Positions 1,112 through 42,157 of a DNA stretch of 64,000 nt are shown piece by piece. How positions within the stretch are numbered: position 1 is the stretch's first letter; the number at the start of each line of letters is the position of its first letter. The notes below the pieces were generated by a model, which did not search any database, was not told where the DNA came from, and was given only the letters and a program-made list of their open reading frames with translations. A program made the translations under genes and the position numbers. Where the stretch lies: assembly GCA_965277885.1 (NCBI GenBank), contig CBDIDS010000003.1:3019205-3083204 (forward strand), given 5' to 3'. Source of the DNA: Capsulimonadaceae bacterium. GTDB lineage: Bacteria; Armatimonadota; Armatimonadia; Armatimonadales; Capsulimonadaceae.

Positions 1112-2115
1112 ACGCATTTGGTGCATGCCATCGGGCATCAGATACGCCTCGCGCTGCCGTCGGCGCGGGTGGCGTATGTCAGCGGAGAAATGTTTACGAA
1201 CCATTATGTGGCGGCGATCCGGGACAAGCGGACGGAAGATTTTCGGCGGGCGTACCGGAACGTGGACGTGTGGCTTGTTGACGACATTCAGATGCTGGCG
1301 TCCAAAGAGCAGACCAAAGAAGAGTTCTTTCACACGTTCAATGCCCTGCACCAGATGAACAAGCAGATTGTCTTGACGTCGGACCGCCCCCCGCGCGAGC
1401 TGCGGGCGATGGACGACCGGCTGCGCTCCCGCTTTGAGTGCGGCCTGGTCGCCGACATCACCGCGCCGGAGCTGGAAATGCGTCAGGCCATTCTCCAAAA
1501 GAAGGCTTTGCTGGACGACCTTGCCATTCCCGAAGAAGTCATCGCGTTCATGGCGAACTTGATCCAAAGCAACATTCGGGCATTAGAAGGGGCGCTGATC
1601 AAGCTGATGGCGTATGCGTCGCTGATCCACAGCCCCGTCACCAAGCAGCTCGCCAGCGATGTTCTCAGCGGCTATTATGTCGAGCGGATGGCCCCGCGCG
1701 AGGCGGCATCGGCCCACCCGGAAGACCATGAATTCGCGTTCCAGTCCCCCGAAGCCGCCGCGCGTTCCACCCAGTCGCTCCCGGCCTCCAGCGCAGGCGG
1801 GCCGGGCGTAGACGGCGTGATCGAAGCCGTTGCCCGGCAAATGGGAGTCACGCGCGAGATGATTGTCGCCGGCGGCGGGCGCAGCAACCGGGCGACCCGG
1901 CTGCACGGCGATGCCAATTTCGCCCGCAGGTCGCCATGTACCTCTTGAAAGAGATGGGCGGCGTGCCGCTGACGACGCTTGCGGCAACGTTCGGCCTCAA
2001 GAGCCACACGGCGGTGGTTCATGCCCACGGACGCCTGCAAAAAGAGCTTGACTCCGACCCGCAGATTTTGTCCTTGATCAGCAAGATAAAGCAGGAACTT
2101 GAGCGGGGGAGTTAA
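1..2115 (+). CDS. dnaA: Chromosomal replication initiator DnaA (5' end outside window; interrupted by an intein; last ~60 codons lie in a different frame)
   Basis: After the intein the frame-2 ORF reads THLVHAIG...[12 protein letters not shown]...[10 protein letters not shown]...LRSRFECGL...[10 protein letters not shown] (DnaA AAA+ domain III). Frame 1 from ~1927 reads [33 protein letters not shown]...ELERGS with stop TAA 2113-2115 (DnaA domain IV). Confidence 0.85.
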
Positions 2116-3142: not shown

Positions 3143-4312
3143 ATGCAAGTCACCTCGCTTAAGCTGGACCATTTTCGGAATTACGAGACTCTTGCGATTG
3201 AGCCGGGACCGGGCCTGAACATCTTTGTCGGGCTGAATGCCCAGGGCAAAAGCAACCTGCTCGAAAGCCTGTACCTGCTCGCGACCAGCAAGTCGTCCAG
3301 GGCAGGCAAAGACACGGAGCTGATCCAGTTCGGTGCGGCCCAGACCTGCGTGTCCGCTGATGTCGTTCGGGCCAAGAACAGCGACATCGAGATTGAGCTG
3401 ACCCTGTCGCTGACCGAAAAGAAAGCCGCCCGGATCAACGGCATCAAGCACACGCGGCTCGCCGAAGTGATCGGGCAGCTCAACGCCGTCTTGTTCGACA
3501 GCGGGGATTTAGAGATCATTCGCGGCGAGCCGTCCGTCCGCCGCCGCTTTTTGGATTTGGAAATCTCGCAAACGTCGCCGCGCTATGTGCTGGCCCTGGG
3601 CGCGTACCGCAAGACTTTGGAGCAGCGGAACCGCCTGCTGCGGGACCTGCGCGACGGCCACGCGCCCGCATCGGCCCGGCAGAGCCTGCCGGCGTGGAAC
3701 GAGAGCTTGTCTCAGCACGGAGCCAGGCTGATGGAGCGCCGCCGCCTCTTTTTAGACCGTCTGGCCCAGCTTGCGTCGGAAACGCACGCAATTTTGAGCG
3801 ACGGGCGCGATACGCTGGAAGTCGCTTACCTGCCGTCATTCTCGCTTGGTGACTTGACGGAAGCCGATGCCATTCAGGCCCGCTTTTTGGAAGAACTCAG
3901 CCAAGTGGCCGGCGAAGAAGCCGCGCGGGGAACAACCGTGCGCGGGCCGCAGCGCGACGACATCGCGTTTCTGGTCAACGGCCAGGACTGCCGCTTGTTC
4001 GGCTCGCAGGGGCAGCAGCGGACCGTCGCCCTGTCGCTGAAGCTGGCCGAGCGGCGCCTCATCGAAGAGCTGGTCGGCGAGCCGCCGCTGCTGCTGTTGG
4101 ACGATGTTCTGTCCGACCTCGACGACGCCCGCCGCAGCCTCTTATTTAATCTGACCGCTGAAGCCGGCTCGCAGACGTTTCTGAGCTGCACGAATCTCCG
4201 CGCGTTCTCGCCGGGCGTTTTGGAGCAGGCGACGGTGTATGCGGTCACGGCGGGGAAAGTGGTGAGGACCCACCCCGCCGCAAGCGGCGACCCTCCCGAA
4301 GCGGGAGGGTGA
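3143..4312 (+). CDS. recF: DNA replication and repair protein RecF
   Basis: N-terminal P-loop FVGLNAQGKSNLLESL, signature region GSQGQQRTVALSLKLAE, Walker B LLLLDDVLSDLD. The last ~15 codons run into repeat element A1. Confidence 0.95.
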   Translation: MQVTSLKLDHFRNYETLAIEPGPGLNIFVGLNAQGKSNLLESLYLLATSKSSRAGKDTELIQFGAAQTCVSADVVRAKNSDIEIELTLSLTEKKAARINGIKHTRLAEVIGQLNAVLFDSGDLEIIRGEPSVRRRFLDLEISQTSPRYVLALGAYRKTLEQRNRLLRDLRDGHAPASARQSLPAWNESLSQHGARLMERRRLFLDRLAQLASETHAILSDGRDTLEVAYLPSFSLGDLTEADAIQARFLEELSQVAGEEAARGTTVRGPQRDDIAFLVNGQDCRLFGSQGQQRTVALSLKLAERRLIEELVGEPPLLLLDDVLSDLDDARRSLLFNLTAEAGSQTFLSCTNLRAFSPGVLEQATVYAVTAGKVVRTHPAASGDPPEAGG

Positions 4313-4422: not shown

Positions 4423-5037
4423 ATGAGAAAAACACGCGGCATGGCGCCGGCCTTCGGCGCGGTAGACAGCTTTTTCCGGGACCAAGAGCTGGCATCGGCC
4501 CTGCGGCCTCATCTTGCCAAAGCCCACTGGGTCCCGGTCGTCGGCCCGCAGGTAGCGGGCGTCACCCAGGTGGAAGCGGTGCGTGACGGCGTGCTGTATG
4601 TCCGGGTCAAGAACAGCGTCTGGGCGAACGAGCTGACTCTGCTCAAAGACGACATACTGCGGCGCTTGAACGCAAAGCTCGGCGGGCGGATCCTGACCGA
4701 CATCCACTTCAAAGCCAGCGGCCTGGCAAAGTCCAAAAAGAAGCCGGAAGTCGTGCGCCCGGCAGGACCGACCGACGCGGAGCTGGCGCGGACGACGCTC
4801 ACGAAAGCGGCGTCCGCGAAGATAGACGCCGCGCTCTCGGAAATCCAAGATGAAGCTCTGCGCGGGCGTATCCGGCAGATCATGCTGCGGGCGGCCAGGA
4901 CTGAAGAATGGAAGCGGCGGGCGGGCTGGCAGGTTTGTAAACGCTGCAAGGCGCTGGCCGAGCCGTCGCCGGACCCGGACGCAGCCTGCTGCTGCACGGT
5001 CTGCCGGGCGGTTGTCTTCGGGCTGGAACGCACTTGA
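4423..5037 (+). CDS. DUF721 / DciA-like protein with C-terminal Cys-rich (zinc-ribbon-like) tail
   Basis: Core VLYVRVKNSVWANELTLLKDDILRRLN typical of DUF721. CKRCK...CCCTVC tail. Classic position right after recF. SD AAGGAGGTG (4409-4417) lies inside element A1. Confidence 0.75.
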   Translation: MRKTRGMAPAFGAVDSFFRDQELASALRPHLAKAHWVPVVGPQVAGVTQVEAVRDGVLYVRVKNSVWANELTLLKDDILRRLNAKLGGRILTDIHFKASGLAKSKKKPEVVRPAGPTDAELARTTLTKAASAKIDAALSEIQDEALRGRIRQIMLRAARTEEWKRRAGWQVCKRCKALAEPSPDPDAACCCTVCRAVVFGLERT

Positions 5038-14637: not shown

Positions 14638-15906
14638 CTAGACTGGCGACGTAGGCGACTTCTTACGGGCCAGGACAACGCCACCCAGGCCAAGCGCCAG
14701 CAGCAGGCCGAGGCTCACCGTGGTAGAGGCTTCGGGAACGGCGGCGGGCAGGGCGAAGCGCAGGACTTCCCCGTCGCCCGCGCCGTTGCCCTGGCTGGAC
14801 AGATACAGCGCGTTGTCGGAACCGGCGATCAGATTGGTGTAATTGGAGCCGGGCGCAAGCGTCGCCAGCAGCGTGTCTTGTCCGGTCGCGGGGTCGAACT
14901 GGAACAGGTCGGCGGGGCCGGGGTTCGGGCCGAGGCCGTTTGTGGTCAGGTCCAGCACATACAGGTCGCCGTTCGCCCCGAAGGTCATGCCGGTGATGGT
15001 CGTGAAGCCTTTTGCAAAGACCGACGATGTGTTGGTCTTTGGGTCCAGGCTCAGGATGCTTGCGCCGCCGACCGGGAATGGGTAGCCGGTGAACTCGCCG
15101 GCGTACAGTTTGCCCTGCGAGTCCTGGGCCAGCGCCGTGGGAACGCTCTGGTAGAACGGCGGGCCGGGAGCCGTGTTCTTGGTGGCCGGGAGCGCACTCA
15201 GCAGAGACGGAGCGCCGCCGCCTGCGGGAGTTTGCAGCACGACGTTCCCGCCGCCGTCGGAAACGGCAAAGCCGCCGCCGCGCAGGGCTGACAGGCCGTA
15301 GGGGTTGGCTTCCGGCGTTGTCCCGCCGGGGTTGTTCGCTGCATAGTTCTGGGTCTCGTAAGGAACCAGATCGGACTGCGGCGTCAGCGTGTTCAGCGCG
15401 GCATTGAGCCGAACCACCTGCCCCAAATCCCCGGCGTTGGTGCTGCCCGCGCCGGACGGACCAAGCACATCCGAAACAAGCTGCGTCCGCTGCGCTTCCG
15501 TGCCGCCGAGGCCGAAGACGCCGTAGAGCTGGCCGCCGCTGAAGGCGATGCCCGAAAGGCCGGTCGCGCCGCCCCCGCCGCCGGCGGTATCGAGCGAAGG
15601 CAGGCCGCTGACGACCCGTGTTTGAACGCCGTCTGAAAGGCGGCTGACCGCGCCGGTATCGCCGAAGTAGACCTGGTCGCCCGCGCCGTTCACAAAGTTT
15701 GCGCCGGTCGCCGCGCCGCTGTTTCCGGTGCCGGCTTCGGCGACATACAGGCTGCCGTCGGGGCCGAACGCGAGGCCGTAGGGGTTATCCAGCCCGGACA
15801 TGACCACTTGGAATGGGGAGGGAGGAGGGGTTTGGGCCATCGCCGGAGCCGCCGCAAGCGCGAGGACGGCTGCGCTGAGCGCGGCATGAGAAAGAATGTG
15901 CTTCAT
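14638..15906 (-). CDS. Secreted beta-propeller (NHL / SMP-30-like) protein with PEP-CTERM sorting signal
   Basis: Signal peptide. GLAFGPDGSLYVAE and GMTFGANGDLYVLD repeats. C-terminal VPEASTTVSLGLLLALGLGGVVLARKK. Confidence 0.85.
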   Translation of the reverse strand: MKHILSHAALSAAVLALAAAPAMAQTPPPSPFQVVMSGLDNPYGLAFGPDGSLYVAEAGTGNSGAATGANFVNGAGDQVYFGDTGAVSRLSDGVQTRVVSGLPSLDTAGGGGGATGLSGIAFSGGQLYGVFGLGGTEAQRTQLVSDVLGPSGAGSTNAGDLGQVVRLNAALNTLTPQSDLVPYETQNYAANNPGGTTPEANPYGLSALRGGGFAVSDGGGNVVLQTPAGGGAPSLLSALPATKNTAPGPPFYQSVPTALAQDSQGKLYAGEFTGYPFPVGGASILSLDPKTNTSSVFAKGFTTITGMTFGANGDLYVLDLTTNGLGPNPGPADLFQFDPATGQDTLLATLAPGSNYTNLIAGSDNALYLSSQGNGAGDGEVLRFALPAAVPEASTTVSLGLLLALGLGGVVLARKKSPTSPV

Positions 15907-17225: not shown

Positions 17226-19274
17226 ATGACCGAACCCATTCATTACAAACTCGGACGCTCCGGCCTGTGGGCCGCGTTTCTTCCGGTGCAGGACGGCCTG
17301 CGTCCGACCTGGCAGCTTGCGGTGTCTGCGCGAAACCGGGGCGGCACCAAAGTTCTGGCCCCGCTGCTGGAAACGTCGGTGCTGCGGCCTCTCGCGACGG
17401 TGCGGGTCAAAGGGGAAGCGTACCCGCTGACCATTGACTGGCACGCGCTGGGACGCGGCGGGCGGCTGTGTCTGGGCGGGACACGAAAATTAGGCCAGGG
17501 CGGGGCGGACTTGGAATGGGAGATGCGCTGGCTGCCGGCGCCGAAAATGGACAGCGCGTTCACCGTAGAGATGCGCCTGCGGACGAACCCGCGCAGCGCG
17601 GGGTCGCTGAAGATTGATCTGCCGTCGGCCCTGCATCAGCCCGAAGTGTGGCGGCTGGAGGCGGCGCGGATGTCCGGCCACGCGGCGCTGTGCGCCTTCT
17701 CCCCGTATCACAACTATGGGTCCGGCCTGGTCGCCCTGGCCGGGGACGCCGAATGGGCGGACAGCGGCGGCTGGACCCTGGAGCTGCCGTCGTTCTCGCT
17801 CGGCGGCGGCAAGCTGGTGACGTTCGGCCTGTGCTTTGGGGCGGCCAAAACAAGCGGCGACGCGCGGGCGTCGCTGGTCACGCAGTACGCGGCGTTTGCC
17901 GAAGCCATGCTGCACCCGCTGGAAAACATTTCCGCGCTTGACCCGGCTGAAGCTGTCGCGACGCTGTCCGCGCCGGAATCGCATCACGCTGTCGGCATGG
18001 AGCGGCTGTATCTGAAAACGCCGACTGAAAATACGTTCTGCGGGGCCGGGCCATTGGAGCCTGCCGGAGCGCTGGCCGCGTTGTGGGACTGGAACCGGCT
18101 GCACGCCGCGCCGGGCATCCCGCGCCTGGTCCGGTTCGGCGCTCACGGCCTGTGCGCCGACTTTCAGGTCATGGGCCGGGCGGGCGAGCCGGAGCCGAAC
18201 AAAGGCGCGTTCTGGGACTGTCTGGCCCAGGGAGAAGGCACGGATTTCGCGGGCGGGCAGACCTTCGGCTTGGCCGCCAATGCCCGGCTGGCCCGGTCGC
18301 TGTTTCGCTTGTTTGAGGTGTCCGGCGAGCCGCTGCTGCGGCAGTCGGCGATCAATATCAGCCACTGGCTGCTCTTGAAGCAGAACGAGCGCGGCTTCTA
18401 CGACGGCGCACGGGTCCACGCGACGCGGGGCTTAGAAACCGATGGGCGTGCTTTGCCGTCGCCGTGCGCTTTAGACGGCGCGGAGGCCATTCGGGCATTT
18501 ACAGCGGCCTACGGCGTGACGGGCAACGAAGTCTGGATCAAGGCCGCCTGGCGCATCGCGGATTTTCTCATTCAGCGCCGCCTGCGCGACTTCGACGCGC
18601 AATCGCCCACGGCCATCGCAGGCGTCCTCGCTTCACTGATGGCGCTGGACGCCGAAGCGCCGAACCCTCGCCTGCGGGCGGCGATTGCCGAGTGGGGCGC
18701 TTGGCTTCTCACCCACCCGCTGCCTGCCGCCCTGCCGTCCATGAATGCCGACGGCCTGCATTCCGGCTTATTTGAGTGCGCTCAGATCGGCTTCCGCCTC
18801 TTTGCCCTGCTGCAAAACCCGGCCTATTTACGCTATGCGTTCGCGGCGTTAAGCGCCGTGCCGGACACGTCCCGCGCGGCGTCCTGGCGGACAATCGCCG
18901 CCCATCAGTCTGCGCTTTTGTCCCTGGCCGCGCTGCTGCCGGACTCGAAAATCAGCTTCGACGCGCCGAGCGTGACGCTGGACTGGCGCGTCTTCACCCC
19001 CGACCCCGCCGCCGCGCCGTTTCTGCGCCTGCAAGCAGCGGGCGGCGCGGATGCCCGCGTGGACTGGCTGCCGCTGGTCTGCCGCGCCACCGACCAGCTT
19101 CTCCTGCTTGTCATCGCCCCGCCGACCGTCGATGCCGTGTCGGTCTGGAAAAACAGCAAGCGCCCGCTCCTGCGCGACCTGCGGACAGGACTTGTAGACA
19201 CGGACGCTCCGTTAGCTTTTGTTTCCGGCAAAGAGCGCTGGGCGCGGGCGGGCCTGTTCACGGTAGACCCGTAA
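17226..19274 (+). CDS. Large hypothetical protein (682 aa); the C-terminal half could be an alpha/alpha-toroid-like fold
   Basis: Long protein-like ORF starting MTEPIHYKLGRSG. The 5' extension of the track ORF (from 16836) overlaps the HDOD gene and is Arg/Pro-rich, so it is rejected. No motif recognised. Confidence 0.6.
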   Translation: MTEPIHYKLGRSGLWAAFLPVQDGLRPTWQLAVSARNRGGTKVLAPLLETSVLRPLATVRVKGEAYPLTIDWHALGRGGRLCLGGTRKLGQGGADLEWEMRWLPAPKMDSAFTVEMRLRTNPRSAGSLKIDLPSALHQPEVWRLEAARMSGHAALCAFSPYHNYGSGLVALAGDAEWADSGGWTLELPSFSLGGGKLVTFGLCFGAAKTSGDARASLVTQYAAFAEAMLHPLENISALDPAEAVATLSAPESHHAVGMERLYLKTPTENTFCGAGPLEPAGALAALWDWNRLHAAPGIPRLVRFGAHGLCADFQVMGRAGEPEPNKGAFWDCLAQGEGTDFAGGQTFGLAANARLARSLFRLFEVSGEPLLRQSAINISHWLLLKQNERGFYDGARVHATRGLETDGRALPSPCALDGAEAIRAFTAAYGVTGNEVWIKAAWRIADFLIQRRLRDFDAQSPTAIAGVLASLMALDAEAPNPRLRAAIAEWGAWLLTHPLPAALPSMNADGLHSGLFECAQIGFRLFALLQNPAYLRYAFAALSAVPDTSRAASWRTIAAHQSALLSLAALLPDSKISFDAPSVTLDWRVFTPDPAAAPFLRLQAAGGADARVDWLPLVCRATDQLLLLVIAPPTVDAVSVWKNSKRPLLRDLRTGLVDTDAPLAFVSGKERWARAGLFTVDP

Positions 19275-19282
19275 GCCGGCGC

Positions 19283-19426
19283 TCAGTTCGTGCCGCCGGG
19301 CGGGACATGGAATGGCACATCCAGCGGCGGAGCGGGGGGCGGCGCCGGTGGCTCCGGTGGGTTTTCTTCATCTTTATCTTTTTCCGGCTCCGGCACTTTT
19401 TCCGAGTCTTCCGAAGAGGTTGTCAT
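19283..19426 (-). CDS. Small acidic/Pro-rich protein (47 aa) ending VPFHVPPGGTN
   Basis: Not in the ORF track (under 60 aa). My translation is MTTSSEDSEKVPEPEKDKDEENPPEPPAPPPAPPLDVPFHVPPGGTN. SD AAAGGAGC lies 5-6 nt before ATG 19426. Confidence 0.5.
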   Translation of the reverse strand: MTTSSEDSEKVPEPEKDKDEENPPEPPAPPPAPPLDVPFHVPPGGTN

Positions 19427-19438
19427 GTGTAGCTCCTT

Positions 19439-19675
19439 TCATTGCGGGCCGCCGGGCGGGACGTGAAACGGCACGGTGACGCGCGGCGGCGACTTCACTT
19501 TTTTGACCGTCTCGATGGTATTGAAGCGGCGTCCGTGGGAACGCCGCCCATGATGCCGGGAGTGATGATGCCGCGTTGGGGCAGCGGACGCCGGCAGGGC
19601 TTGAAACGCGGTCAGCGCCAGCATGAGCGCCGAAAAGTGAAGCGTCAGCTTCGGCAGCAGGGGCTTTACCGTCAT
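19439..19675 (-). CDS. Small secreted His/Arg-rich protein (78 aa) ending VPFHVPPGGPQ
   Basis: Signal peptide ...ALPASA-AP. TRHHHSRHHGRRSHGRR. SD AAGGAG before ATG 19675. Confidence 0.6.
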   Translation of the reverse strand: MTVKPLLPKLTLHFSALMLALTAFQALPASAAPTRHHHSRHHGRRSHGRRFNTIETVKKVKSPPRVTVPFHVPPGGPQ

Positions 19676-19687
19676 AAAAGTTCTCCT

Positions 19688-19948
19688 TTATCCACCGCCG
19701 CCGGGCGGGGTGTGAATTGCCGTCAGGCGGTAACGCCGGGAGCGTCCGGCCCGATAACCGACGCGATAACCAGTCCGATAACCGGCGCGGTAGTCGGCAT
19801 TGTGGCGAAAACGGTGCTTGGCGGAGTGTCTGGCGGCACGGTGCATCGGCGCGGCGGATGCCGGCGGGAGGGGAAGGACGGCGAGCGCAAACAGCAGCGC
19901 CAGCCAGCACGCTAGCTTTGGTAAGAAGGTCATGCGGAACAGTTTCAT
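19688..19948 (-). CDS. Small secreted basic protein (86 aa) with YR(A/T/V)G repeats, ending AIHTPPGGGG
   Basis: Signal peptide ...LPPASA-AP. DYRAGYRTGYRVGYRAG. SD AAGGAGAA before ATG 19948. Confidence 0.6.
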   Translation of the reverse strand: MKLFRMTFLPKLACWLALLFALAVLPLPPASAAPMHRAARHSAKHRFRHNADYRAGYRTGYRVGYRAGRSRRYRLTAIHTPPGGGG

Positions 19949-19964
19949 GCGGTTCTCCTTTTCT

Positions 19965-22625
19965 CTACGTTAGCCCGTCATAATTGTCCAGAACATATTG
20001 AATGCTTTGCGAGGCGTCTATCCGAGCCCCCTGCGCCCAAAACAGGGCGAACTGCTCCTCGCCGAGCGCCGCACGGCTTTGGGCGAGCGTTGCCCAGGGG
20101 TCGAAACCGAGGCCGAGCGTGACCATTTCTCCTTCCCGCGCCGCCTCGGAAGCGGCTTGAAGGATGCAGACTTCAGCGTGTCTGCCTTCCACCCCGGCGA
20201 TTTCCGCAAGCTGCGTCAGCGTAGTAGCAGTCTGCTGCTTGCTGCGAAGCGTCCGCTGCGCTTCCAGGCTGTCCCGGAAATAGGGCTTGGCCTGTGCGTA
20301 CTGCCCCTGCTGGAAGAGCAGATCGCCTAAATTGTGCAGCGTCGCCGCGCTCCCGGCGGCGTCGTACAACTCCCGGTATTCTGCCAGCGCCCGGCGGTAC
20401 AGGTCTTCCGCCCCGGCGTAGTCGCCCTGCCCCAGCGCCAGAACTCCCATGCTGTTGAGCATCCGGGCGCTGTTGGCGCGGTCCCCCAGCCCCCGGTACT
20501 GGCCGAGGCTTTCCTGCCCATATCGCTCGGCCTCGGCATACTGCTTTTGCCCCTCGGCAACGATGCACAGGTTGCCGAGGGCGCGGGCGATGCCGTGCGG
20601 ATTTTCGCAGCGCTGCTGAAGCGCCAAATCCCGCAGGTGGTACGCACGGGCTGTATCGTAGTCTCCGCAGCACCAGGCCAGCATGCCTGCCCCGCTAAGA
20701 ACCTTCCCCAGAACCGCGTCTTCGCTGCTGATCTCCGCAAGGGCCGCTTCCAGCCGGCTTCGGCCTTCGGACAGGTAAGAGCGCCCGTACCAGAAGCGGG
20801 ACAATGCCCCGGCGAGGCGCGGCAGGGTGCCGTCGCGTATCTCCTGAGCAAACGCCAGCGCGGCCCGCAGGTTTTCCATGTCGCATTCCAGCGTGTTCAG
20901 CCACAGCACCTGGCTTGCCCCCAGCAAATTGGGCTCGGCTTCTTCGGCGAGGCTTACAAAGAAGTCGCGGTGCTTTCGGCGCAGGCCGTCCCGCTCGTCC
21001 GGCGATTCCGCCAGCTTGCCGGCGGTATACGAATGGATGCTTTGGAGCAGGCGGTAGCGTACCGGGCCGCCGTCCGGCGTCTCGACCACGATCAGCGACT
21101 TTGCCGCGAGGTGGGACAGCCCTTCCAAAACTTCCCAGTCTTCGACTTCCCCCCCCGCGCAGACCGCTTCGGCAGCGCCTAATGACCAGTCGCCATGGAA
21201 CACCGACAAGCGCCGCAGCAAACACTGCTCGGCGGGCGACAGCAGCTCATACGACCAGTCTACCAGCGCTCTTAATGTCTGCTGACGCGGCAGCGCCGTC
21301 CGTGAGCCGCCGGTCAGGAGCCGGAAGCGGTCGTTGAGGCGCCCGTCAATCTGCTCCGGGGTCAAGACTTTGACCCGCGCCGCCGCAAGCTCTAACGCCA
21401 GCGGGATGCCGTCGAGCCGGGTGCAGACCGACGCCACGGCGGCGGCGTTGCCGCTGCTCAGCCGGAACTGGGGAAGGGCGGCGGTCGCCCGCTCGACAAA
21501 CAGGCGCACCGAGTCGCAGCCGCCCAGCGCTTCGAGCGTCCGGGCATCGCCGGGCGGCGGCAGGCCGAGCGGCGGCAGGGGCAGGACCGCCTCGCCGCCG
21601 ATGCCTAAAGCTTCCCGGCTGGTCGCCAGTACGGACAGCTTGGGACAGGACTTCAGAAGCGCTTCGGTCAAACGGGCCACGGCGTCAATCAGATGCTCGC
21701 AGTTGTCTAAAATTAAAAGCAGCGGCTGCGGGCGCAGGGCCTCCAGCAGCGTTTGGCGCAGCCGCCCGGCATCTTCCCGCAGGCCGAGGACGCCTGCGAT
21801 TTCCTGCTCAATAAGCTCCGGGTCGGACAGCGCGGCCATCTCCACCAGCCAGGTTCCGCCGGGATAGTCCTCCCGCACGTCGGCGGCAAGCTGCAATGCC
21901 AGCCGGGTCTTGCCCGTTCCGCCCGTCCCCACAAGCGTCACCAGCCGCGCCGCCGCCAGCTTTTCCCGCGCCGCCGCCCGCTCGGCGTCCCGCCCGATAA
22001 AGGAAGTCAGCGCGGCGGGCAGGTTGTGCGGGAACAGGTCGGGCAGGCGCAGCGGGGGGAACCCGGCGGGCAGGCCGGGCGCAGACAATTCCCAAATCTC
22101 CGACGCCTGCGTGAAGCCTTTAAGCGCGTGCTGTCCTAAAAATCGCAGGGAAACGCCGGGCGGCAGCGCGTCCGGCGCCAGTTTCGCCGCCGTGTCCGAC
22201 AGCAGGGTCTGGCCGCCGTGCGCCGCCGCCAGCAGCCGGGCGGTCCGGCTCAGAGCCGCGCCGAAATAGTCGCCGTCCCGCCGCTCCGCCGGCCCGGTGT
22301 GCAGGGCCAGCCGCACTCGGAGCGCCCCGCTGTTGTCCAGTCCCCAGGAGGCCGCCGCCAGCGCGGTTTGGGCGGAAACCGCGGCTTGGAAGGCATCACC
22401 GGGAGAATGAAACGCGGCGTGGAACGCATCCCCGACTGTTTTAAAGATTTCGCCCCCGGCGTCTTCAATCGCCTGCCGCACGAGCGCGTCATGCCGTGCC
22501 AGCGCCCCCGACATGGCATCGGGCTGCGCTTCCCACAACGGCGTACTGCCTTCGATGTCGGAAAACAAAAATGTCAGCGTCGCAGTTGTCTCAGCGTCCG
22601 GCATGGGTGACTTGTTCGGTTTCAT
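19965..22625 (-). CDS. Class III adenylate/guanylate cyclase domain fused to a STAND (NB-ARC-like) ATPase and TPR repeats
   Basis: LTFLFSDIEGSTPLWE...FKTVGDAFHAAF...LHTGPAERRDGDYFG (cyclase). LVTLVGTGGTGKTRLALQLA (P-loop). LLILDNCEHL. C-terminal TPR-like repeats (LGNL..., LNSMGVLAL..., LHNLGDLLF...). Confidence 0.9.
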   Translation of the reverse strand: MKPNKSPMPDAETTATLTFLFSDIEGSTPLWEAQPDAMSGALARHDALVRQAIEDAGGEIFKTVGDAFHAAFHSPGDAFQAAVSAQTALAAASWGLDNSGALRVRLALHTGPAERRDGDYFGAALSRTARLLAAAHGGQTLLSDTAAKLAPDALPPGVSLRFLGQHALKGFTQASEIWELSAPGLPAGFPPLRLPDLFPHNLPAALTSFIGRDAERAAAREKLAAARLVTLVGTGGTGKTRLALQLAADVREDYPGGTWLVEMAALSDPELIEQEIAGVLGLREDAGRLRQTLLEALRPQPLLLILDNCEHLIDAVARLTEALLKSCPKLSVLATSREALGIGGEAVLPLPPLGLPPPGDARTLEALGGCDSVRLFVERATAALPQFRLSSGNAAAVASVCTRLDGIPLALELAAARVKVLTPEQIDGRLNDRFRLLTGGSRTALPRQQTLRALVDWSYELLSPAEQCLLRRLSVFHGDWSLGAAEAVCAGGEVEDWEVLEGLSHLAAKSLIVVETPDGGPVRYRLLQSIHSYTAGKLAESPDERDGLRRKHRDFFVSLAEEAEPNLLGASQVLWLNTLECDMENLRAALAFAQEIRDGTLPRLAGALSRFWYGRSYLSEGRSRLEAALAEISSEDAVLGKVLSGAGMLAWCCGDYDTARAYHLRDLALQQRCENPHGIARALGNLCIVAEGQKQYAEAERYGQESLGQYRGLGDRANSARMLNSMGVLALGQGDYAGAEDLYRRALAEYRELYDAAGSAATLHNLGDLLFQQGQYAQAKPYFRDSLEAQRTLRSKQQTATTLTQLAEIAGVEGRHAEVCILQAASEAAREGEMVTLGLGFDPWATLAQSRAALGEEQFALFWAQGARIDASQSIQYVLDNYDGLT

Positions 22626-23236
22626 TTATTCGGCAGGGGCGGCAGGCCCGCCCGGCCCAGGCACCAGTCTAAGACCCAGGGCCATTCGCCGTAGCCGTAG
22701 TAGGGGGAGATATGCCCGCTGTTCGGCAGCTTTTGGAGGTCTAATCCCAGCCCGGCCGCATACGCCGCCGACTGGTCAAACGTCGCGTAATCGTCGGTAT
22801 CCGACGCGATCAAAACCGTTTCGCGCCCAACGGCTTTAAGACCTGCCGGGGACAAAACCGGCGGAAAGAACGCCGCCGTTCCCACTAAATCCAGCGGCAG
22901 GATTTCCGGCACGACATACGGCGGCGCGACCAGCAGCACCCGCGCCGCGACCGGGCCGGGCCGCTGAAAGCCCGCGTCCTGGGACATTGCCGCATGGCGC
23001 ATCCAGTTGACTGCCCCCATCGAGTGCGTCAGCACCGTCAAATCGGCGTCTTTAGGGACCGTGCCCAGCGCTTTGTGAATGAGCGCCATCCAGGCGTCCG
23101 GGTCCGGGTTTGTCGGGTCGGCCATCTTCGGCGCGAGGACCGTGTGGCCCGCCGCCGTCAGCTTGCCCGCCAGCCACTCCTGCCAGTGCGCGGGCTTGCT
23201 GCCGCCCCAGCCATGCAGGATGAGAAAGTCTGCCAT
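22622..23236 (-). CDS. Alpha/beta-hydrolase, YdeN/RBBP9-like serine hydrolase
   Basis: FLILHGWGGS, nucleophile elbow THSMGA, ~200 aa. Its stop overlaps the cyclase start (ATGA, 22622-22625). Confidence 0.75.
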   Translation of the reverse strand: MADFLILHGWGGSKPAHWQEWLAGKLTAAGHTVLAPKMADPTNPDPDAWMALIHKALGTVPKDADLTVLTHSMGAVNWMRHAAMSQDAGFQRPGPVAARVLLVAPPYVVPEILPLDLVGTAAFFPPVLSPAGLKAVGRETVLIASDTDDYATFDQSAAYAAGLGLDLQKLPNSGHISPYYGYGEWPWVLDWCLGRAGLPPLPNK

Positions 23237-23323
23237 AATTTGTCTCCGTCTAAAGTTGCTGCCGTGCCGTCATTCTGACAGTTAAGCGCACGTTTGTCAA
23301 GAATTGGCAGGTGTGGGGAGTGT

Positions 23324-23748
23324 CTAATTTAGCGCAGGTAAAAAGTCAACCAAGTGAGCTTTGAGTTTCGGGTATTGCCGTACAAATATCTGCCGCGCGT
23401 TGTAACAAAAAACGAACAGCTTGACCTGACGCGCTAAAGCGTCCAGGCGACGCGAGAAACACCGGCTCTTGCGGCCAAGACGCGCCAGGTAATGACGCAG
23501 ATCCGCATTGTCTCCCTCCACGCTGTACGTCTCGCTCTTGCCCGGCGCGACCGCGTGCTGGCCGTGCGGGTAGAGCAGGGACTTGTACGCCTCGTAACCG
23601 TCGCTGAAGTAGCGCTCTGGCTGCAAAGGAGCCGTCTGGTCTACCAGTGGCTGAAGTGTGTCCTGGTCGCGCGTGAGGCTGACGGTCCAGGCCAGAACGC
23701 AGCGGGTGTCCCGATCTACCGCTGTGCAGACATACGCGAAGTTTTTTT
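23324..23748 (-). CDS. IS1-family transposase catalytic frame (InsB-like), reached by a -1 frameshift on AAAAAAAC (T7 at 23742-23748 on the + strand)
   Basis: The -1 frame after QKK reads NFAYVCTAVDRDTRCVLAWTVSLTRDQDTLQPLVDQTAPLQPERYFSDGYEAYKSL...NADLRHYLARLGRKSRCFSR. Confidence 0.75.
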
Positions 23749-24096
23749 CTGCGTGAGGAACGTGTATAGCTCGTCCATCTCGACGGTTTGGGCCTGGGCG
23801 GGCGTCGGGCGCGTGGGCAGCGCGTCGCAGGCGTCCTTGACCCAGTTGACGACGGTTTGCGGGGACACGCCGATGAGTCGGGCGGTGCGCCGGAAGTTGA
23901 TGCCGTCCACATACATCCGCAGAGCGGCCCGACGCACTTGGGGCGAATAGCCTTTCTTTTTGGGCTGGGGGGTGTAGAAGCGTCGGCAGTGCTGGCAGTG
24001 GAGGCGCTGGGTGCCGCAGCGGTTGAAGCCGGCACGGGTTTGGCGGGTGGTAGCGGCGCAGGCAGGGCAGGAAGAGACAGGAGAAAGTGTAGTCAT
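23716..24096 (-). CDS. IS1-family InsA-like protein (zinc finger plus HTH)
   Basis: CPACAATT...CQHCRRFYT. LRMYVDGINFRRTARLIGVSPQTVVNWV. Confidence 0.85.
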   Translation of the reverse strand: MTTLSPVSSCPACAATTRQTRAGFNRCGTQRLHCQHCRRFYTPQPKKKGYSPQVRRAALRMYVDGINFRRTARLIGVSPQTVVNWVKDACDALPTRPTPAQAQTVEMDELYTFLTQKKTSRMSAQR

Positions 24097-24506: not shown

Positions 24507-25433
24507 CTACCGCAAGCCGCGCAGTTCTTCACCGGCTGCTTTTTCGACATCCTCGTCGTCTGCCAGCGCGGCCTTCTGCAAGGCGGCTTTGGCCTGCGGG
24601 GCATCTGCCAGCCGGGTTTTGCTTTGCAGGTCCAGCTGCTTCCAGCCGTAGGCGTAGTAGAAGTTCGTCACCGCCGCGTCCGGCGCAAGTTTTCGTGCCT
24701 GCTCAAACTCGCTCATCGCCAGCTCACGGTCATTGCCGGTGTCGTTGACCAGCAAGCCGAGTGCGATATGCGCGGCGGCCTGCATCTCGACGGGCGAGGG
24801 CAGTCTGCCCTCGAAAGAGCGGCTGATTTCAGGATGGGCGGTGTCCGGCGCGTGGCGCACGGCCTCTGAGTACACGGAGAACGCTTTGCTGTTCTGCCCT
24901 GTCTGACTGAGCAGCAGGGCGTATTTCATCCACGCAACGGCATCCGTCGGTCCGCAGCAGCCGCGCAGGTTGGAGGGATTGCCGATTGATCGGCTGAACG
25001 CGGCTCCTTCCGGCCCTGTGTTCAGCGGCCAGTAGACCACCGTTTTGTAGACCGAAAGGGCTTCTGTTGTTTTGCCCTGACCGGCGAGGGCCTCGCCCAG
25101 TCCGTAGTAGTAGTTCGGAATATCCGACTGCATCTGAACAAGCTCCCGGTAATCGGCTTCGGCGAGAACAAAGTTTTTGTTGTGCAGGGCTTCCTGCCCT
25201 GCACGGTTTAGCTCATTTATCTTTGCCGTTCCTGCGTTTACACGGTCCTGCTCTTGCGGGGTGATGGTGAAGCCTCCGCTTCCTCGGCGTATGCCGCTCA
25301 ACCTCTTTGCGATCTCCGCAGCGGACAAGGGAGGGCGGGAAGCCGCAGCGCCGGCCCCAGAGGTTGCTTGCGCGGCGGCTGACAAGGCTGAGATCAGGAA
25401 GACCAGAGATAAGCAAACGGTGTTTGGTTTCAT
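24507..25433 (-). CDS. Secreted TPR-repeat protein
   Basis: Signal peptide MKPNTVCLSLVFLISALSAAAQA. Repeated A-x-x-x-Y/F...A TPR-like helices (ALHNKNFVLAEADYRELV, YYYGLGEALAGQGKTTEAL, and others). Confidence 0.75.
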   Translation of the reverse strand: MKPNTVCLSLVFLISALSAAAQATSGAGAAASRPPLSAAEIAKRLSGIRRGSGGFTITPQEQDRVNAGTAKINELNRAGQEALHNKNFVLAEADYRELVQMQSDIPNYYYGLGEALAGQGKTTEALSVYKTVVYWPLNTGPEGAAFSRSIGNPSNLRGCCGPTDAVAWMKYALLLSQTGQNSKAFSVYSEAVRHAPDTAHPEISRSFEGRLPSPVEMQAAAHIALGLLVNDTGNDRELAMSEFEQARKLAPDAAVTNFYYAYGWKQLDLQSKTRLADAPQAKAALQKAALADDEDVEKAAGEELRGLR

Positions 25434-25563: not shown

Positions 25564-26259
25564 TCACATTTCGGCGCGTTTGGCGAGGGCGGCGGGTTTA
25601 CAGATGATCCAGCGGGCGGCGTCTTTGTCCCAGAGAATGGCCCCGGACTCGCGGAAGGCGGACAGGGCGCGGGAGACGCACTCGCGGGTCGCGCCGATGA
25701 GGGCGGCGATGTCGCTCTGGGTCAGGCTGACGTCCACCCGGAGGCTGCCGCCGGGGAGGGGCGTCCCCTGCGCCCCCGCGAGGCGCAGGAGGCACGCGGC
25801 GACTCGGCCGGGGACATCGCGGGTCATCATCATTTCCGCCTGGGTATTGGCGTCCCGCACCCGCAGGGACAGGATTTGCAGCAGGGTCCAGGCGACGGCG
25901 GGCTGGTCCAGGAGCAGGCCCCGCAGGGCGTCCCCTTCCAGCAGCAGCAGCGCCGACGGCTCCAGGGTGGAAATGTCGGCGGAGCGCGGCTGTCCGTCCA
26001 GCAGGCTCATCTCGCCGAAGAAGTCGCCGGGGCCGAGGATGTTCAGGATGACTTCACTGCCGCTCGCGGTCGCCTGGTGGACTTTGACCCGGCCCGACTC
26101 CAGCACATACAGCGCCCCCGACGGGTCGCCTTTGTAGACGACCGGGGTTCCCGCCGGCATCCGCCGCCGCCGCAGACGCGCGGCCAGCGCGGCCAGCGCG
26201 TCTTCAGGCAGGCCCGCGAACAAAGGAACGTTTCGGAGGATGTCCGCTTCGAGGCTCAT
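25564..26259 (-). CDS. Crp/Fnr-family transcriptional regulator (cNMP-binding domain plus HTH)
   Basis: LRNVPLFAGLPEDAL...GDFFGEMSLLDGQPRSA...LTQSDIAALIGATRECVSRAL. Confidence 0.9.
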   Translation of the reverse strand: MSLEADILRNVPLFAGLPEDALAALAARLRRRRMPAGTPVVYKGDPSGALYVLESGRVKVHQATASGSEVILNILGPGDFFGEMSLLDGQPRSADISTLEPSALLLLEGDALRGLLLDQPAVAWTLLQILSLRVRDANTQAEMMMTRDVPGRVAACLLRLAGAQGTPLPGGSLRVDVSLTQSDIAALIGATRECVSRALSAFRESGAILWDKDAARWIICKPAALAKRAEM

Positions 26260-34091: not shown

Positions 34092-34682
34092 TCATCTTTT
34101 CCGCCCCATCCACTTCCAGCCGAGGGGCAGCAGGCCCGCCGCGAGAAGCGCTTTGACGGCGTCGCCGGGCAGGAACGGCAGGACGCCGAGCAGGAGCGCA
34201 TGAGACGCGCCGCCGACAAAGTGGGCCAGCCAGGACGCGCCGAGGGCGAAGATGACGACCGAGCCGGTGAGCATGGCGGCGAGCATGGTCAAAGGCCGCC
34301 GGTCCCAGCCGCGTGTCGCAAGGGAGCCGACAAGCGCCGCCGCAAGCGGGTAGGCGGCCAGGTAGCCGCCGGTCGGACCGGCGAAACGCGCGAGGCCGGA
34401 CGCGCCGCCGGCAAAGAACGGCAGGCCGCACGCGCCTTCCGTCAGGTACAGGAGCAGGGCGAGAGCGCCGAGGCGCGGGCCGAGCAGGGCGCCGGTCAAA
34501 AGGACGCCGAAGGTCTGCCCGGTCAGCGGCACCGGCGAGAAGGGCAGGGGAACGGCAATCTGGGCGGACAACGCGGTGACGAGGCTGAAGACAAGCACGA
34601 GCAGCGCGTCGCGTGTCCAGTCAGCGGCTTTCGTGTCGGCGCGGCCCGGCCAGAGGGTTTGAGCCAGTGGTGTTTGTGTCAA
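34092..34682 (-). CDS. bioY: Biotin transporter BioY
   Basis: SAQIAVPLPFSPVPLTGQTFGVLLTGALLG...GPTGGYLAAYPLAA...LPFLPGDAVKAL. TTG 34682 is chosen as start. The long Arg/Pro-rich 5' extension in the track is rejected. Confidence 0.8.
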   Translation of the reverse strand: MTQTPLAQTLWPGRADTKAADWTRDALLVLVFSLVTALSAQIAVPLPFSPVPLTGQTFGVLLTGALLGPRLGALALLLYLTEGACGLPFFAGGASGLARFAGPTGGYLAAYPLAAALVGSLATRGWDRRPLTMLAAMLTGSVVIFALGASWLAHFVGGASHALLLGVLPFLPGDAVKALLAAGLLPLGWKWMGRKR

Positions 34683-34759
34683 GTCGAAATCTCCCAAGCA
34701 TTTTCGGTAATTATACCTACGAGGCAGGATTTCCCGCGCCCTTTGCCGAAGAGGGCCGC

Positions 34760-36640
34760 ATGGAAAAAACTGAGAAGGCACTTCCGCCCCTGATCCCGCG
34801 CGAAGTCCTGTTCGGAAACCCGGAAAAAACCGGGCCGCAGATCTCGCCCGACGGCACAACGCTGGCGTACCTTGCGCCGTCGGACGGGGTGCTGAATGTC
34901 TGGGTGCGGAGCGTCGGGCACTCCAACGACCGGGCCGTGACCCAGGACACGCTGCGCGGCATCCGGGCGTTCTTCTGGCAGGGGGACAGCGCCCATCTGC
35001 TGTATTTGCAGGACACCGGCGGCGACGAAAACTTTCATCTGTACCAGACGGAGATCGCGACCGAGCGGACGGAAGATTTGACTCCGTTTGCGGGTGTCCG
35101 TGCCGTGCCGCTGGCGCTGAACCCGAACATTCCGGGCCGGATGCTGGTCTCGCTGAACCGGCGCGACCCGCGCGTCTTCGATGTTTACAATTTGGATTTG
35201 ACGACGCGGGAATTGACGCTGACCACGGAAAATTCCGGCGATGTCGCAAGCTTTGCGGCAGACAATGCTTTAGAAGTTCGCGCCGCGCAGGTGCAGCTTT
35301 CCGACGGGTCTACCGAAATTCGGGTGCCGGACGGCGCGGGCGGCTGGCGTGTCTTTTTGACCTGGGGCGCGGACGAGACCGGCGGCGGCGTGTCGGGTTT
35401 TTCGCCCGATAATTCCAAGATGTGGGTGATCAACAGCGTCGGCGCGAACGCCGCGCGTCTGCTGGAAGTAGACCTCGCGACTGCTGAAAGCGCCGTGGTC
35501 GCCGAAGACCCGGACTTTGATGTCAGCGGCATTCTGCGCCACCCGAAGACACGCGCTTTAGAAGCCGTGCAGTTTACCCGCGCCCGGCAGGAATGGACGG
35601 CGGTAGACCCGGCCCTGCAAGCCGATTTTGAGATACTCAGCGTGGTGACGGACGGCGATTGGAGCATCACAAGCCGCGATCTGGCCGACACGCACTGGGT
35701 CGTCGCGTATGTCCGGGACAGCGGCCCGACGCGCTTTTATCTTTACAACCGCACGACAAAAACCGCCGAATTCCTGTTCAGCAGCCAGCCGGCATTAGAG
35801 AATTACACGCTCGCGCCGATGACCCCGGTGACGTTCCCGGCCCGTGACGGCCTCTCGCTCTCCGGCTATTTGACGCTTCCCGTCGGCATGGAGCCAGCGC
35901 AGCTGCCGCTGGTGCTGCTGGTGCATGGCGGCCCGTGGGCGCGGGACGTGTGGGGCTACAGCGCAACGGTGCAGATGCTGGCGAACCGGGGCTACGCCGT
36001 GCTGCAAATCAACTTTCGCGGCTCGTCGGGCTACGGCAAAGCCCATTTAAACGCCGGGGACAGGGAATGGGGCGCGAAGATGCACACGGACCTGCTCGAC
36101 GGCAAGCAGTGGGCCATTGCCGAAGGCTACGCCGACCCCGACCAAGTGGCGATCATGGGCGGCTCTTACGGCGGCTATGCGACGCTGGCCGGGCTGGCGT
36201 TCACACCGGACGAATTTGTCTGCGGCGTGGACATCGTCGGCCCGTCCAATCTGCTGACGCTGCTGCAAACCATCCCGCCGTACTGGTCTACCTTAGTCGC
36301 GACCTTCTACAAGCGCATGGGGAGATTAGACGAAGTCGAGTTCCTCCAAGAGCGCTCGCCGCTGTTCTCGGCTGGGCAAATTACCAAGCCGCTTTTGATC
36401 GCCCAGGGCGCGAACGACCCGCGCGTCAAGCAGGCGGAAAGCGACCAGATTGTGGCGGCGATGCGCGAGCGCGGCCTGCCCGTCGAGTACCTTGTCTTCC
36501 CCGACGAAGGCCACGGCTTCGCCCGGCCCGAAAACAACCGCAAGTTCATCGCCGCCGCCGAAGCCTTTTTGGCCCGCTACCTCGGAGGCCGGGCCGAGCC
36601 GCCGTCCCCGGAAGAAAGCGCAAGCGATTTGCGTCAGTAG
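34760..36640 (+). CDS. S9-family serine peptidase (prolyl oligopeptidase / dipeptidyl-peptidase type)
   Basis: N-terminal beta-propeller region. HGGPWARD, nucleophile [23 protein letters not shown]. Confidence 0.85.
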
Positions 36641-42075: not shown

Positions 42076-42157
42076 AGGCTGATTGTACCACACCCTGCCG
42101 TACCGCGCGACGTGCAAGAGGGCAGGAAACTTGCGTCCCTGTGCCGAACTGTGCGGC

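Follow-up and report, generated by a model that had tools for sequence, protein, structure and literature searches.

Three tandem small genes with a shared proline-rich motif behind a cyclase-STAND-TPR receptor gene in Armatimonadota

Three small open reading frames (ORFs) lie in tandem on the minus strand of a 64,000-nucleotide (nt) stretch of DNA from a Capsulimonadaceae bacterium (contig CBDIDS010000003.1, positions 3,019,205 to 3,083,204; the whole stretch is referred to as the window). They stand directly behind the gene for a receptor-type protein with class III cyclase, STAND NTPase and TPR domains, and the product of each carries the motif H-x-P-P-G-G close to its C-terminus. The locus raises the question of whether ORF1, ORF2 and ORF3 are genuine genes and, if they are, what might read the motif that they share.

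Three tandem ORFs and their shared motif

The ORFs and their parts are as follows, in window coordinates and with C-terminal ends written up to the stop codon (SD, Shine-Dalgarno sequence; aa, amino acids).

19688-19948, minus strand: ORF1, 86 aa, C-terminal end AIHTPPGGGG
19853-19948, minus strand: ORF1 signal peptide, aa 1-32, judged by eye
19697-19714, minus strand: ORF1 motif codons H-T-P-P-G-G, from a six-frame scan
19955-19960, minus strand: SD AAGGAG of ORF1
19439-19675, minus strand: ORF2, 78 aa, C-terminal end VPFHVPPGGPQ
19583-19675, minus strand: ORF2 signal peptide, aa 1-31, judged by eye
19448-19465, minus strand: ORF2 motif codons H-V-P-P-G-G, from a six-frame scan
19683-19688, minus strand: SD AAGGAG of ORF2, overlapping the ORF1 stop by 1 nt
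19283-19426, minus strand: ORF3, 47 aa, C-terminal end VPFHVPPGGTN
19292-19309, minus strand: ORF3 motif codons H-V-P-P-G-G, from a six-frame scan
19433-19438, minus strand: SD AAGGAG of ORF3

The original prediction had described three tandem minus-strand ORFs with AAGGAG SDs and 12-nt gaps, and the coordinates, lengths and ends that it gave were all borne out. The spacing from AAGGAG to ATG was 6, 7 and 6 nt for ORF1, ORF2 and ORF3, the ORF1-ORF2 and ORF2-ORF3 gaps were 12 nt each, with the next SD abutting or overlapping the preceding stop codon, and 16 nt separated the receptor stop from the ORF1 start. The SDs of the small ORFs were much stronger than those of the upstream genes. Disruption of the ORFs in reads, for which a check had been proposed, was not seen, as contigs from two independent public runs (probably DNA runs) matched the window exactly across the ORFs.

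ORF1-3 are genuine genes under selection. In the closest relative, L001 (an ENA metagenome contig), the same three ORFs stand behind the same TPR gene, and in the DNA alignment with the window every indel within the ORFs was a multiple of three (12, 3, 6, 6 and 6 nt). The two intergenic indels were 1 and 4 nt long, from which it follows that the common reading frame of all three ORFs in the window is accidental; a single long read-through gene is excluded by the same two indels. For ORF1, the ratio of nonsynonymous to synonymous substitution rates (dN/dS) was 0.25-0.42 in 15 of 15 pairs among six orthologues. That of ORF2 was 0.77 overall in the one available pair, window versus L001, where its single orthologue (P0002) is 74% identical and the stretch RVTVPFHVPPG, right before the last three residues, is invariant. 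The nine codons of the ORF3 motif VPFHVPPGG differ between the window and L001 at four synonymous sites and by one G-to-D replacement. ORF3 as a whole evolves fast in the middle, where L001 has an expanded (QDPKP)n repeat, while its ends are kept; its counterparts in L001, L012 and L014 likewise have a variable middle and a conserved end.

Inspection by eye of the N-termini of ORF1 and ORF2 revealed a basic n-region, a hydrophobic core of 12-15 residues and an LP(P)ASA/AP site, suggesting that both carry a predicted standard Sec/signal peptidase I signal. The predicted mature ORF1 product has 54 aa, an isoelectric point (pI) of 11.9, 12 Arg, 5 His, 5 Tyr and four YRxG repeats, and the predicted mature ORF2 product has 47 aa, a pI of 12.0, 7 His and 7 Arg in a His/Arg-rich composition; their net charges are +9 to +12. 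ORF3, with a net charge of -8 and a pI of 4.1, has no hydrophobic segment and no signal peptide, and Pro makes up 14 of its 47 residues. This is the same picture as had been drawn beforehand, of signal peptides in ORF1 and ORF2 and none in an acidic, Pro-rich ORF3. The ORF3 orthologue of L001 (positions 1851-2142 of that contig) starts with GTG, and its expanded QDPKP repeat reaches an assembly gap of Ns; variation in repeat length probably broke the L001 assembly there.

A scan of all six frames of the 64 kb returned only three matches to H-x-P-P-G-G, each located 2 codons before the stop of one of ORF1-3, against a chance expectation of about 0.2 per window (our own rough estimate from six-frame amino-acid frequencies, not a tool output). 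At the DNA level, PPGG is encoded by CCGCCNGGCGG, a palindrome of 11 bp, and it was considered whether the conserved element could be the DNA itself, as a protein-binding, methylation or recombination site present in three copies. Five copies of the palindrome are present in the window versus about 0.6 expected from base composition, three of the five being the motif, its opposite strand also reads PPGG, and the variable base would be its free centre. However, the element always lies in frame near the stop of an SD-preceded ORF, and the VPFHV residues upstream of it are kept through synonymous changes (the motif codons of ORF2 and ORF3 differ by three of these within the window). The palindrome is also broken in L001 (GGCGAC) and in the relative L016 (GGTGGC) and absent from the variants TPPC, TPPS and TPPR, in all of which x-P-P stays, and its stem of 5 bp around a single-nucleotide loop is unable to fold as RNA. 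Since the palindrome is disrupted in several orthologues that keep the peptide, a DNA element was largely rejected, and we consider it extremely improbable.

Conservation across related loci

Two further genes of the operon are needed from here on.

19965-22625, minus strand: 886-aa class III cyclase-STAND NTPase (AAA_22/NB-ARC)-winged helix-TPR_12 receptor, from Pfam
22622-23236, minus strand: cytoplasmic serine hydrolase PF06821 (YdeN/RBBP9), Pfam E = 7.6e-28

Eleven related loci (L001, L012-L020 and L101) were fetched via receptor and ORF1 homologues, with receptor identities from 82% down to 53%; together with the window they make up 12 loci, all from related Armatimonadota, the lineage being placed in this phylum by the names on receptor homologues; lichen metagenomes contain relatives. 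The order of cyclase-STAND-TPR gene followed by small ORF(s) was kept in 11 of 11 related loci, and the hydrolase gene was present upstream in all 10 contigs that reach far enough (the short L001 contig holds the end of the TPR gene and the ORFs only). The downstream slot holds one to three ORFs per locus, either basic and secreted or acidic and cytosolic. In addition to L001, the following were found in it.

L012: an ORF1-like ORF, end AVHDPPGG, and an ORF3-like ORF, end IAFHDPPGG
L013: an ORF1-like ORF, end AIYTPPGGDH
L014: an ORF3-like ORF, end IPHHEPPGGN
L015: a doubtful TTG-started ORF, end HPTHPGGGG
L016: an ORF1-like ORF, end GIPDPPGGGGG
L017: an ORF1-like ORF, end ALHNPPGG
L018, first ORF: 112 aa, signal peptide, His/Arg-rich, internal NVPHITPPHVG, end AIHHTPPC
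L018, second ORF: acidic, 46 aa, end APHITPPSVTS
L019: an acidic 56-aa ORF, internal AVHNTPPNG
L020, first ORF: 72 aa, signal peptide, with THYTPPR, THRTPPR and a terminal THYTPPGMAQ
L020, second protein: 149 aa, carrying SHYTPPAKPPPGGG
L101: a 181-aa protein with a loose TDPPPG only

The longer downstream proteins of L101 and L020 showed no significant homology to each other. The original prediction had proposed a link to the neighbouring hydrolase or TPR protein, together with a check of co-occurrence with cyclase-STAND-TPR and YdeN-like genes, and the synteny kept across the related loci speaks for such a link. Further support came from 80 paralogous cyclase-STAND-TPR loci (JGI, 38-53% identity), where the hydrolase was found in none of the 80 and SD-preceded motif ORFs in none of the 29 with analysable downstream DNA; a loose motif expression run on paralogous loci flagged 2 of about 95 spurious ORFs. 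The operon association is thus conserved and specific to this orthologous group.

The place of ORF2 and ORF3 is taken in L013 (8014-8112) and L016 (4269-4452) by inverted-repeat inserts resembling miniature inverted-repeat transposable elements, whose arms measure 31 nt in L013, at 97% complementarity, and 66 nt in L016, at 91%. A loose end of run X1 at window position 19274 matches the L013-type insert, and both arrangements therefore coexist in one sample.

Across the clade, the core of the motif can be written as H-x(0-1)-[T/V/D/E/N]-P-P(-G-G). The invariant part in the relatives is x-P-P and not the full H-x-P-P-G-G, with the His at times replaced by Tyr or Pro, such that the pattern first proposed held within the window and proved too narrow outside it. 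The same can be said of the proposed C-terminal position, which applies to the window and its subclade; in L018, L019 and L020, which are deeper relatives, it stands inside the protein, occurs in several copies, or both, and is therefore no strict tag, and PPC, PPS, PPR, PPH, PPA or PPN are found there in place of PPG. Between 0 and 3 residues follow PPGG, giving tails such as GGGG, GGPQ, GGTN, GG, GDPQ, GGDH and GGN. As the number and type of ORFs vary while the motif persists, the motif and not its carrier is the conserved unit and, to judge from the sequences compared, it is a short linear motif in disordered, fast-evolving carriers.

The residues flanking the motif were found to co-vary within loci. 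Flank similarity was 3.5 of 6 positions within a locus versus 1.65 between loci (permutation p = 0.0002), and the repeated forms include VPFHVPPGG (window), VPFHVPPGD (L001), HDPPGG (L012) and PHITPP (L018), each in two copies, while L020 has HYTPP three times and HRTPP once. In L001, both ORF2 and ORF3 have changed from GG to GD, with codons that still differ synonymously. This could be due to gene conversion or to selection by a common partner, and either would imply that the copies within a locus are functionally equivalent.

Given the composition of the products, ORF1 and ORF2 might alternatively encode secreted cationic effectors (antimicrobial, or binding the envelope, polyanions or metals), with ORF3 as a neutralising or immunity partner, the motif serving as a protease-resistance or processing site, and the hydrolase and STAND-TPR protein acting as regulators or being mere neighbours. 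The charges would fit (pI 11.9-12.0 and 5-7 His in each of mature ORF1 and ORF2, and -8 for ORF3), the pairing of a basic, secreted product with an acidic one recurs in L012 and L018, with L001 repeating the layout of the window, and strong SDs would suit abundant products. However, a single type of ORF was found in L013, L016 and L017 (basic) and in L014 and L019 (acidic), and because several loci keep one type only, an obligatory toxin-antidote pair is not conserved. This explanation also leaves unaccounted for both a motif common to exported and cytosolic proteins and the co-variation of its flanks, and a scan of the flanking genes and of most of the window's large ORFs revealed no bacteriocin, immunity or transporter genes nearby. 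On balance, effectors with an immunity partner are regarded as unlikely.

A further possibility was that the motif works on the translating ribosome and not in the finished protein. Ribosomes stall strongly at Pro-Pro-Gly in an EF-P-dependent manner, and the ORFs could encode arrest peptides that adjust translation of the following ORF or the lifetime of the operon mRNA. Throughout the window's clade, PPG precedes the stop of each ORF by 1-3 codons. The SD of the following ORF touches or overlaps the stop, and ORF1 and ORF2 have predicted signal peptides; in combining an N-terminal signal with a C-proximal Pro motif they resemble the secretion-monitoring arrest peptides SecM, VemP and MifM. 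Unlike in those systems, what lies downstream is a mini-ORF or nothing and not secA, secDF or yidC, there being no adjacent Sec or YidC genes; ORF1 is the terminal gene in L013, L016 and L017, with nothing downstream to regulate, and ORF3, always last, lacks a signal. Folding of the ORF1-3 mRNA against shuffled sequences gave z = +1.03, with no excess or SD-sequestering structure, and PPG is not constant, given the PPC, PPS, PPR, PPH, PPA, PPN and internal copies of the deeper relatives. Nor would stalling alone predict the conserved and co-varying residues that precede PP (VPFH, PHIT and HY). Action on the ribosome was accordingly judged very unlikely. An Rfam scan of the window returned nothing, and a tRNA scan found none.

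The suggestion that no described family fits the ORFs was upheld, since Pfam, NCBIfam, PHROGs and PADLOC were all blank for ORF1-3. Searches of 5.8 billion and 1.84 billion proteins returned close relatives only; word-indexed searches yielded one close relative for ORF2 and two for ORF1, and an ORF1 profile run against 1.84 billion representative proteins found ORF1 itself and two repeat-driven false positives. With a degenerate DNA pattern for VPFHVPPG[G/D/E], 10 matches were obtained in 185,579 species genomes, which was judged to be chance level, and none of the 10 was C-terminal in a small secreted ORF. As far as the libraries and searches used show, the feature is previously undescribed and, on this sequence evidence, it is a small-protein family restricted to this clade and operon. 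The sole non-trivial match of the ORF1 profile (E = 4e-5) was P0127, an acidic protein of 487 aa whose DYRxGYxxGYxxGY repeats align to the YRAGYRxGY stretch of ORF1; the two probably have a style of repeat in common without being homologous.

The receptor, the hydrolase and a candidate peptide signal

To our knowledge, no ligand is known for any cyclase-STAND-TPR protein. The receptor of the window scored E = 1.5e-34 for TPR_12 and 24.1 bits for NB-ARC (cut-off 23.5), and its Walker A, Walker B and metal-binding Asp residues are intact. An AlphaFold2 (AF2) model of residues 541-886 gave a TPR superhelix with a predicted local distance difference test score (pLDDT) above 95. The nearest PDB relatives in sequence and fold were the TPRs of LGN/Pins and kinesin light chain (KLC), solved with extended or C-terminal peptides, and the top 50 Foldseek PDB matches comprised LGN, KLC, CTPR and APC. 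In KLC and LGN/Pins, the concave groove binds extended peptides of disordered partners, including C-terminal ones (JIP1 and torsinA). Unlike the receptor, these are eukaryotic scaffolds with no NTPase or cyclase, and a template modelling score of about 0.5-0.68 at about 20% identity indicates generic TPR likeness and not orthology. By its modelled fold, the TPR domain of the receptor is of a peptide-binding type. It is also, together with the C-tail, the least conserved part of the protein, with a mean pairwise identity among nine orthologues of 0.47-0.57 versus 0.65-0.75 elsewhere. Relatives of the cyclase-STAND-TPR protein number 7,996 at E <= 1e-50 and are vastly expanded in Armatimonadota. 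Membership of a defence system was considered for the receptor and dismissed, the matches being restricted to weak ones to PycC and TPR.

The hydrolase stop overlaps the receptor start by 4 nt. The enzyme aligns to YdeN (1uxo) and to RBBP9 around the nucleophile motif, which reads THSMG here versus GHSSG in RBBP9, and its identity across L012-L020 is 71-89%. Human RBBP9, also of PF06821, is an aminopeptidase for N-terminal aromatic residues (PMC8866121).

The partner that reads the motif might be the TPR domain, the hydrolase or neither. Our preferred reading, held tentatively, is that ORF1-3 encode precursors or ligands whose Pro-rich motif is recognised by the neighbouring TPR sensor, perhaps once the hydrolase has trimmed them. 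The anatomy of the ORFs, the selection on them, their linkage to the operon and the co-variation of their motif flanks are the observations from which we infer the steps of binding, export and re-import, processing and output. The motif-bearing peptides would be the cognate ligands of the TPR groove in the adjacent STAND protein. After Sec export, ORF1 and ORF2 would be degraded in the envelope, and the cell would take up a protease-resistant x-P-P-G-G fragment again, whereas ORF3 would supply the same motif directly in the cytoplasm. As its family includes an aminopeptidase, the hydrolase could act as a peptide trimmer, trimming or destroying the peptides with the X-Pro bonds as the trimming limit. 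Ligand binding would then trigger the STAND oligomerisation switch, bringing the N-terminal class III cyclase domains together and altering the output of cyclic nucleotide monophosphates (cNMPs). A complete peptide-to-cNMP relay outside Bacillota, with Sec-exported mini-proteins, STAND-TPR sensing, a class III cyclase, a PF06821 peptidase and ORF3 as a decoy, is a further step that we consider rather unlikely.

A Crp-like factor is a possible, though weak, candidate for the reader of such a cyclase output.

25564-26259, minus strand: Crp-like cNMP-binding transcription factor, from Pfam

Its gene is adjacent to or near the hydrolase gene in L012, L013, L015 and L016, and not in L014, L018, L019, L020 or L101. 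In the window, a split IS1-family transposase (23324-24096, minus strand; helix-turn-helix part 23716-24096 and DDE_Tnp_IS1 fragment 23324-23626) and a TPR protein gene (24507-25433) stand between the Crp-like gene and the hydrolase gene; because the two genes are within 0.6 kb of each other in L012 and L016, the IS1/TPR block is a local insertion.

A narrower explanation is that the motif is a tag recognised or cleaved by the PF06821 hydrolase alone, the TPR protein not reading it. The hydrolase is the most tightly linked partner, being 71-89% identical and confined to this orthologous group, its family contains a peptidase, and an invariant x-P-P core would suit a conserved enzyme. However, RBBP9 works as an exopeptidase on aromatic residues at free N-termini and is no endopeptidase (PMC8866121), so that recognition of an internal or C-terminal tag would be a new activity. 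A cytoplasmic enzyme would also be set against the predicted export of ORF1 and ORF2, and the equally strict linkage of the STAND-TPR gene would be left unexplained. We regard recognition by the hydrolase alone as quite improbable.

Several observations weigh against our preferred reading of the peptides as ligands of the TPR sensor. In an AF2 fusion of TPR(541-886) and ORF3 with a 120-sequence alignment, the TPR was confident and the motif remained at pLDDT <50, which is a weak negative; the same fusion with no alignment was poor (pLDDT 52.8) and uninformative. Recognition of the C-terminus by a carboxylate clamp is unlikely, because the number of residues behind PPGG is not fixed (0-3) and the deeper relatives carry the motif internally. 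The receptor is cytoplasmic and two of the three carriers are predicted to be exported, and an uptake step must therefore be assumed; the scan of the flanking genes and of most large window ORFs revealed no peptide transporter. Gene conversion could yield the within-locus co-variation with no shared receptor, and part of the synteny may be inherited and not functional, since all loci come from one clade. In L101, where receptor identity is 53%, the downstream protein offers the loose TDPPPG only. No public RNA runs containing the locus were found, and the Crp-like factor stands beside the hydrolase only in the closer relatives. The cyclase itself adds a further point. Class III cyclases carry a transition-state Asn, and at residue ~126 of the receptor (FGAALSRTARLL) this position is occupied by Ser, as it is in 7 of 9 aligned orthologues (window included); among homologues, 70 of 119 have Asn and 36 of 119 Ser. 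With this substitution, cyclase output may be weak, reduced or altered.

The arrangement was also compared with known peptide systems. RRNPP systems are cassettes of a receptor and a propeptide described by a five-criterion signature, with a propeptide of 10-100 aa and a receptor of about 250-500 aa (PMC10075063), and their propeptides can hold several pheromone copies (PMC11343458). The locus resembles them in having small SD-preceded ORFs (86, 78 and 47 aa) directly beside an intracellular TPR receptor and in a putative active part that is short and usually near the C-terminus. RRNPP propeptides are exported by Sec or are SHP-like; signal-type N-terminal regions were recognised by eye in ORF1 and ORF2, and ORF3 lacks a hydrophobic segment. 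In contrast, ORF3 has no export signal, the receptor is an 886-aa STAND NTPase with a cyclase output and not a helix-turn-helix or phosphatase-inhibitor module, a hydrolase gene is present in the operon, and no Opp-type importer was seen nearby. RRNPP/RRNPPA systems (Rap-Phr, NprR-NprX, PlcR-PapR and AimR-AimP) belong to Bacillota and phages, whereas the host here is a diderm member of Armatimonadota. The receptor had no Pfam or NCBIfam match to Rap, NprR, PlcR, PrgX, Rgg or AimR, none of which appeared among the top 50 Foldseek PDB matches. Membership of RRNPP was consequently rejected on receptor size, fold neighbours and phylum.

Closer likenesses were found with the actinobacterial peptide-processing systems (Kaur et al. 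2020, PMC7159879). In these, a small protein that diverges quickly but has a conserved peptide at its C-terminus is encoded together with a peptidase and an AP-ATPase-TPR protein, in some cases joined by cNMP cyclases and a CRP-like factor. As in these FxSxx-COOH systems, the putative precursors have diverged in their central parts (ORF2 and ORF3) and have conserved ends, the cluster contains a gene for a hydrolytic enzyme, and the STAND (AP-ATPase-type) NTPase has C-terminal TPRs and a cyclase domain. The differences are that the H-x-P-P-G-G/H-x-T-P-P motif is unrelated to FxSxx, RxD or acidic runs, that two of the precursors have a predicted Sec signal, and that the phylum is another one. 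No zincin metallopeptidase was found among the operon-flanking genes and most large window ORFs, the PF06821 hydrolase being there instead, the radical-SAM/SPASM enzyme and the vWA-MoxR-VMAP core were not present, and the receptor scored 55.8 bits for NF040586 versus a cut-off of 300 bits. Membership was rejected on these grounds. By analogy, the locus resembles the FxSxx-COOH systems more closely than RRNPP but belongs to neither class, and it is best described as a variant of the theme of a STAND/TPR sensor with an adjacent peptide precursor.

Two further classes of C-terminal element were set aside. Sorting signals (PEP-CTERM, GlyGly-CTERM and LPXTG) do not agree with the 0-3 residues that follow PPGG, there being no transmembrane helix or basic cluster. 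Pup ends in GG-Q/E, and ubiquitin-like modifiers have a beta-grasp fold that ends in GG, with ligase genes nearby. Tails such as GGGG, GGPQ and GGTN do not suit these, two carriers are predicted to be exported, and the scan of flanking genes and large ORFs revealed neither PafA/Dop nor E1-like genes.

The locus places a concrete candidate ligand beside its sensor, such that activation of a STAND cyclase becomes testable with synthetic peptides. If the peptides are ligands, receptor-adjacent peptide signalling, which has been characterised chiefly in Bacillota and is predicted in Actinobacteria, would extend to a poorly studied diderm phylum, bacterial PF06821/YdeN hydrolases would gain a function, and H-x-P-P-G-G/H-x-T-P-P would be a new short linear motif. 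If they are not, the ORFs would still be a clean case of lineage-restricted mini-proteins under selection, one of them below the usual gene-calling cut-offs.

Neighbouring genes and further features of the window

Two further features border the operon.

23272-23300, minus strand: promoter-like site TTGACA-17-CAGAAT with TG, from a consensus scan, 10/12 hexamer matches
17226-19274, plus strand: convergent conserved protein of 682 aa, ending 8 nt from the ORF3 stop

The consensus scan returned 2 promoter-like sites versus 0.4 expected; the one at 23272-23300, a consensus match only, lies upstream of the hydrolase gene and is likely to be a putative start of the operon. The convergent protein (about 680-714 aa) is present in 10 of the 12 related loci, where an HDOD gene always follows it, and it is better conserved than the receptor: among six aligned orthologues its identity was 64-86%, versus 55-83% for the receptors of those loci. 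No Pfam family matched it, the best similarity being at E ~0.17 to AGE-type (alpha/alpha)6 isomerases. No link to the motif could be made, and the protein is considered a syntenic neighbour.

The window opens with a DnaA homologue (2-1948, plus strand) that has its Bac_DnaA domain at aa 370-484 and a LAGLIDADG_3 domain at aa 214-293, pointing to an intein or a homing endonuclease inserted in dnaA. Next come a RecF-like gene (3143-4312) and DciA (4423-5037), and the window therefore starts at the chromosomal origin region.

Prolyl-oligopeptidases cut after Pro in short peptides, and two genes of this family (S9) lie 15-23 kb away from the small ORFs (34613-36640 and 42083-44245, both plus strand), one of them with the full beta-propeller architecture. 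A porin with an N-terminal SLH domain (57203-58876, minus strand) would anchor the outer membrane, fitting a diderm envelope. A lone T4-type large terminase gene (60616-62058, minus strand) is possibly a prophage remnant. Finally, a secreted NHL-repeat protein (14638-15906, minus strand) ends in VPEASTTVSLGLLLALGLGGVVLARKK, which by eye resembles a sorting signal of the PEP-CTERM type.

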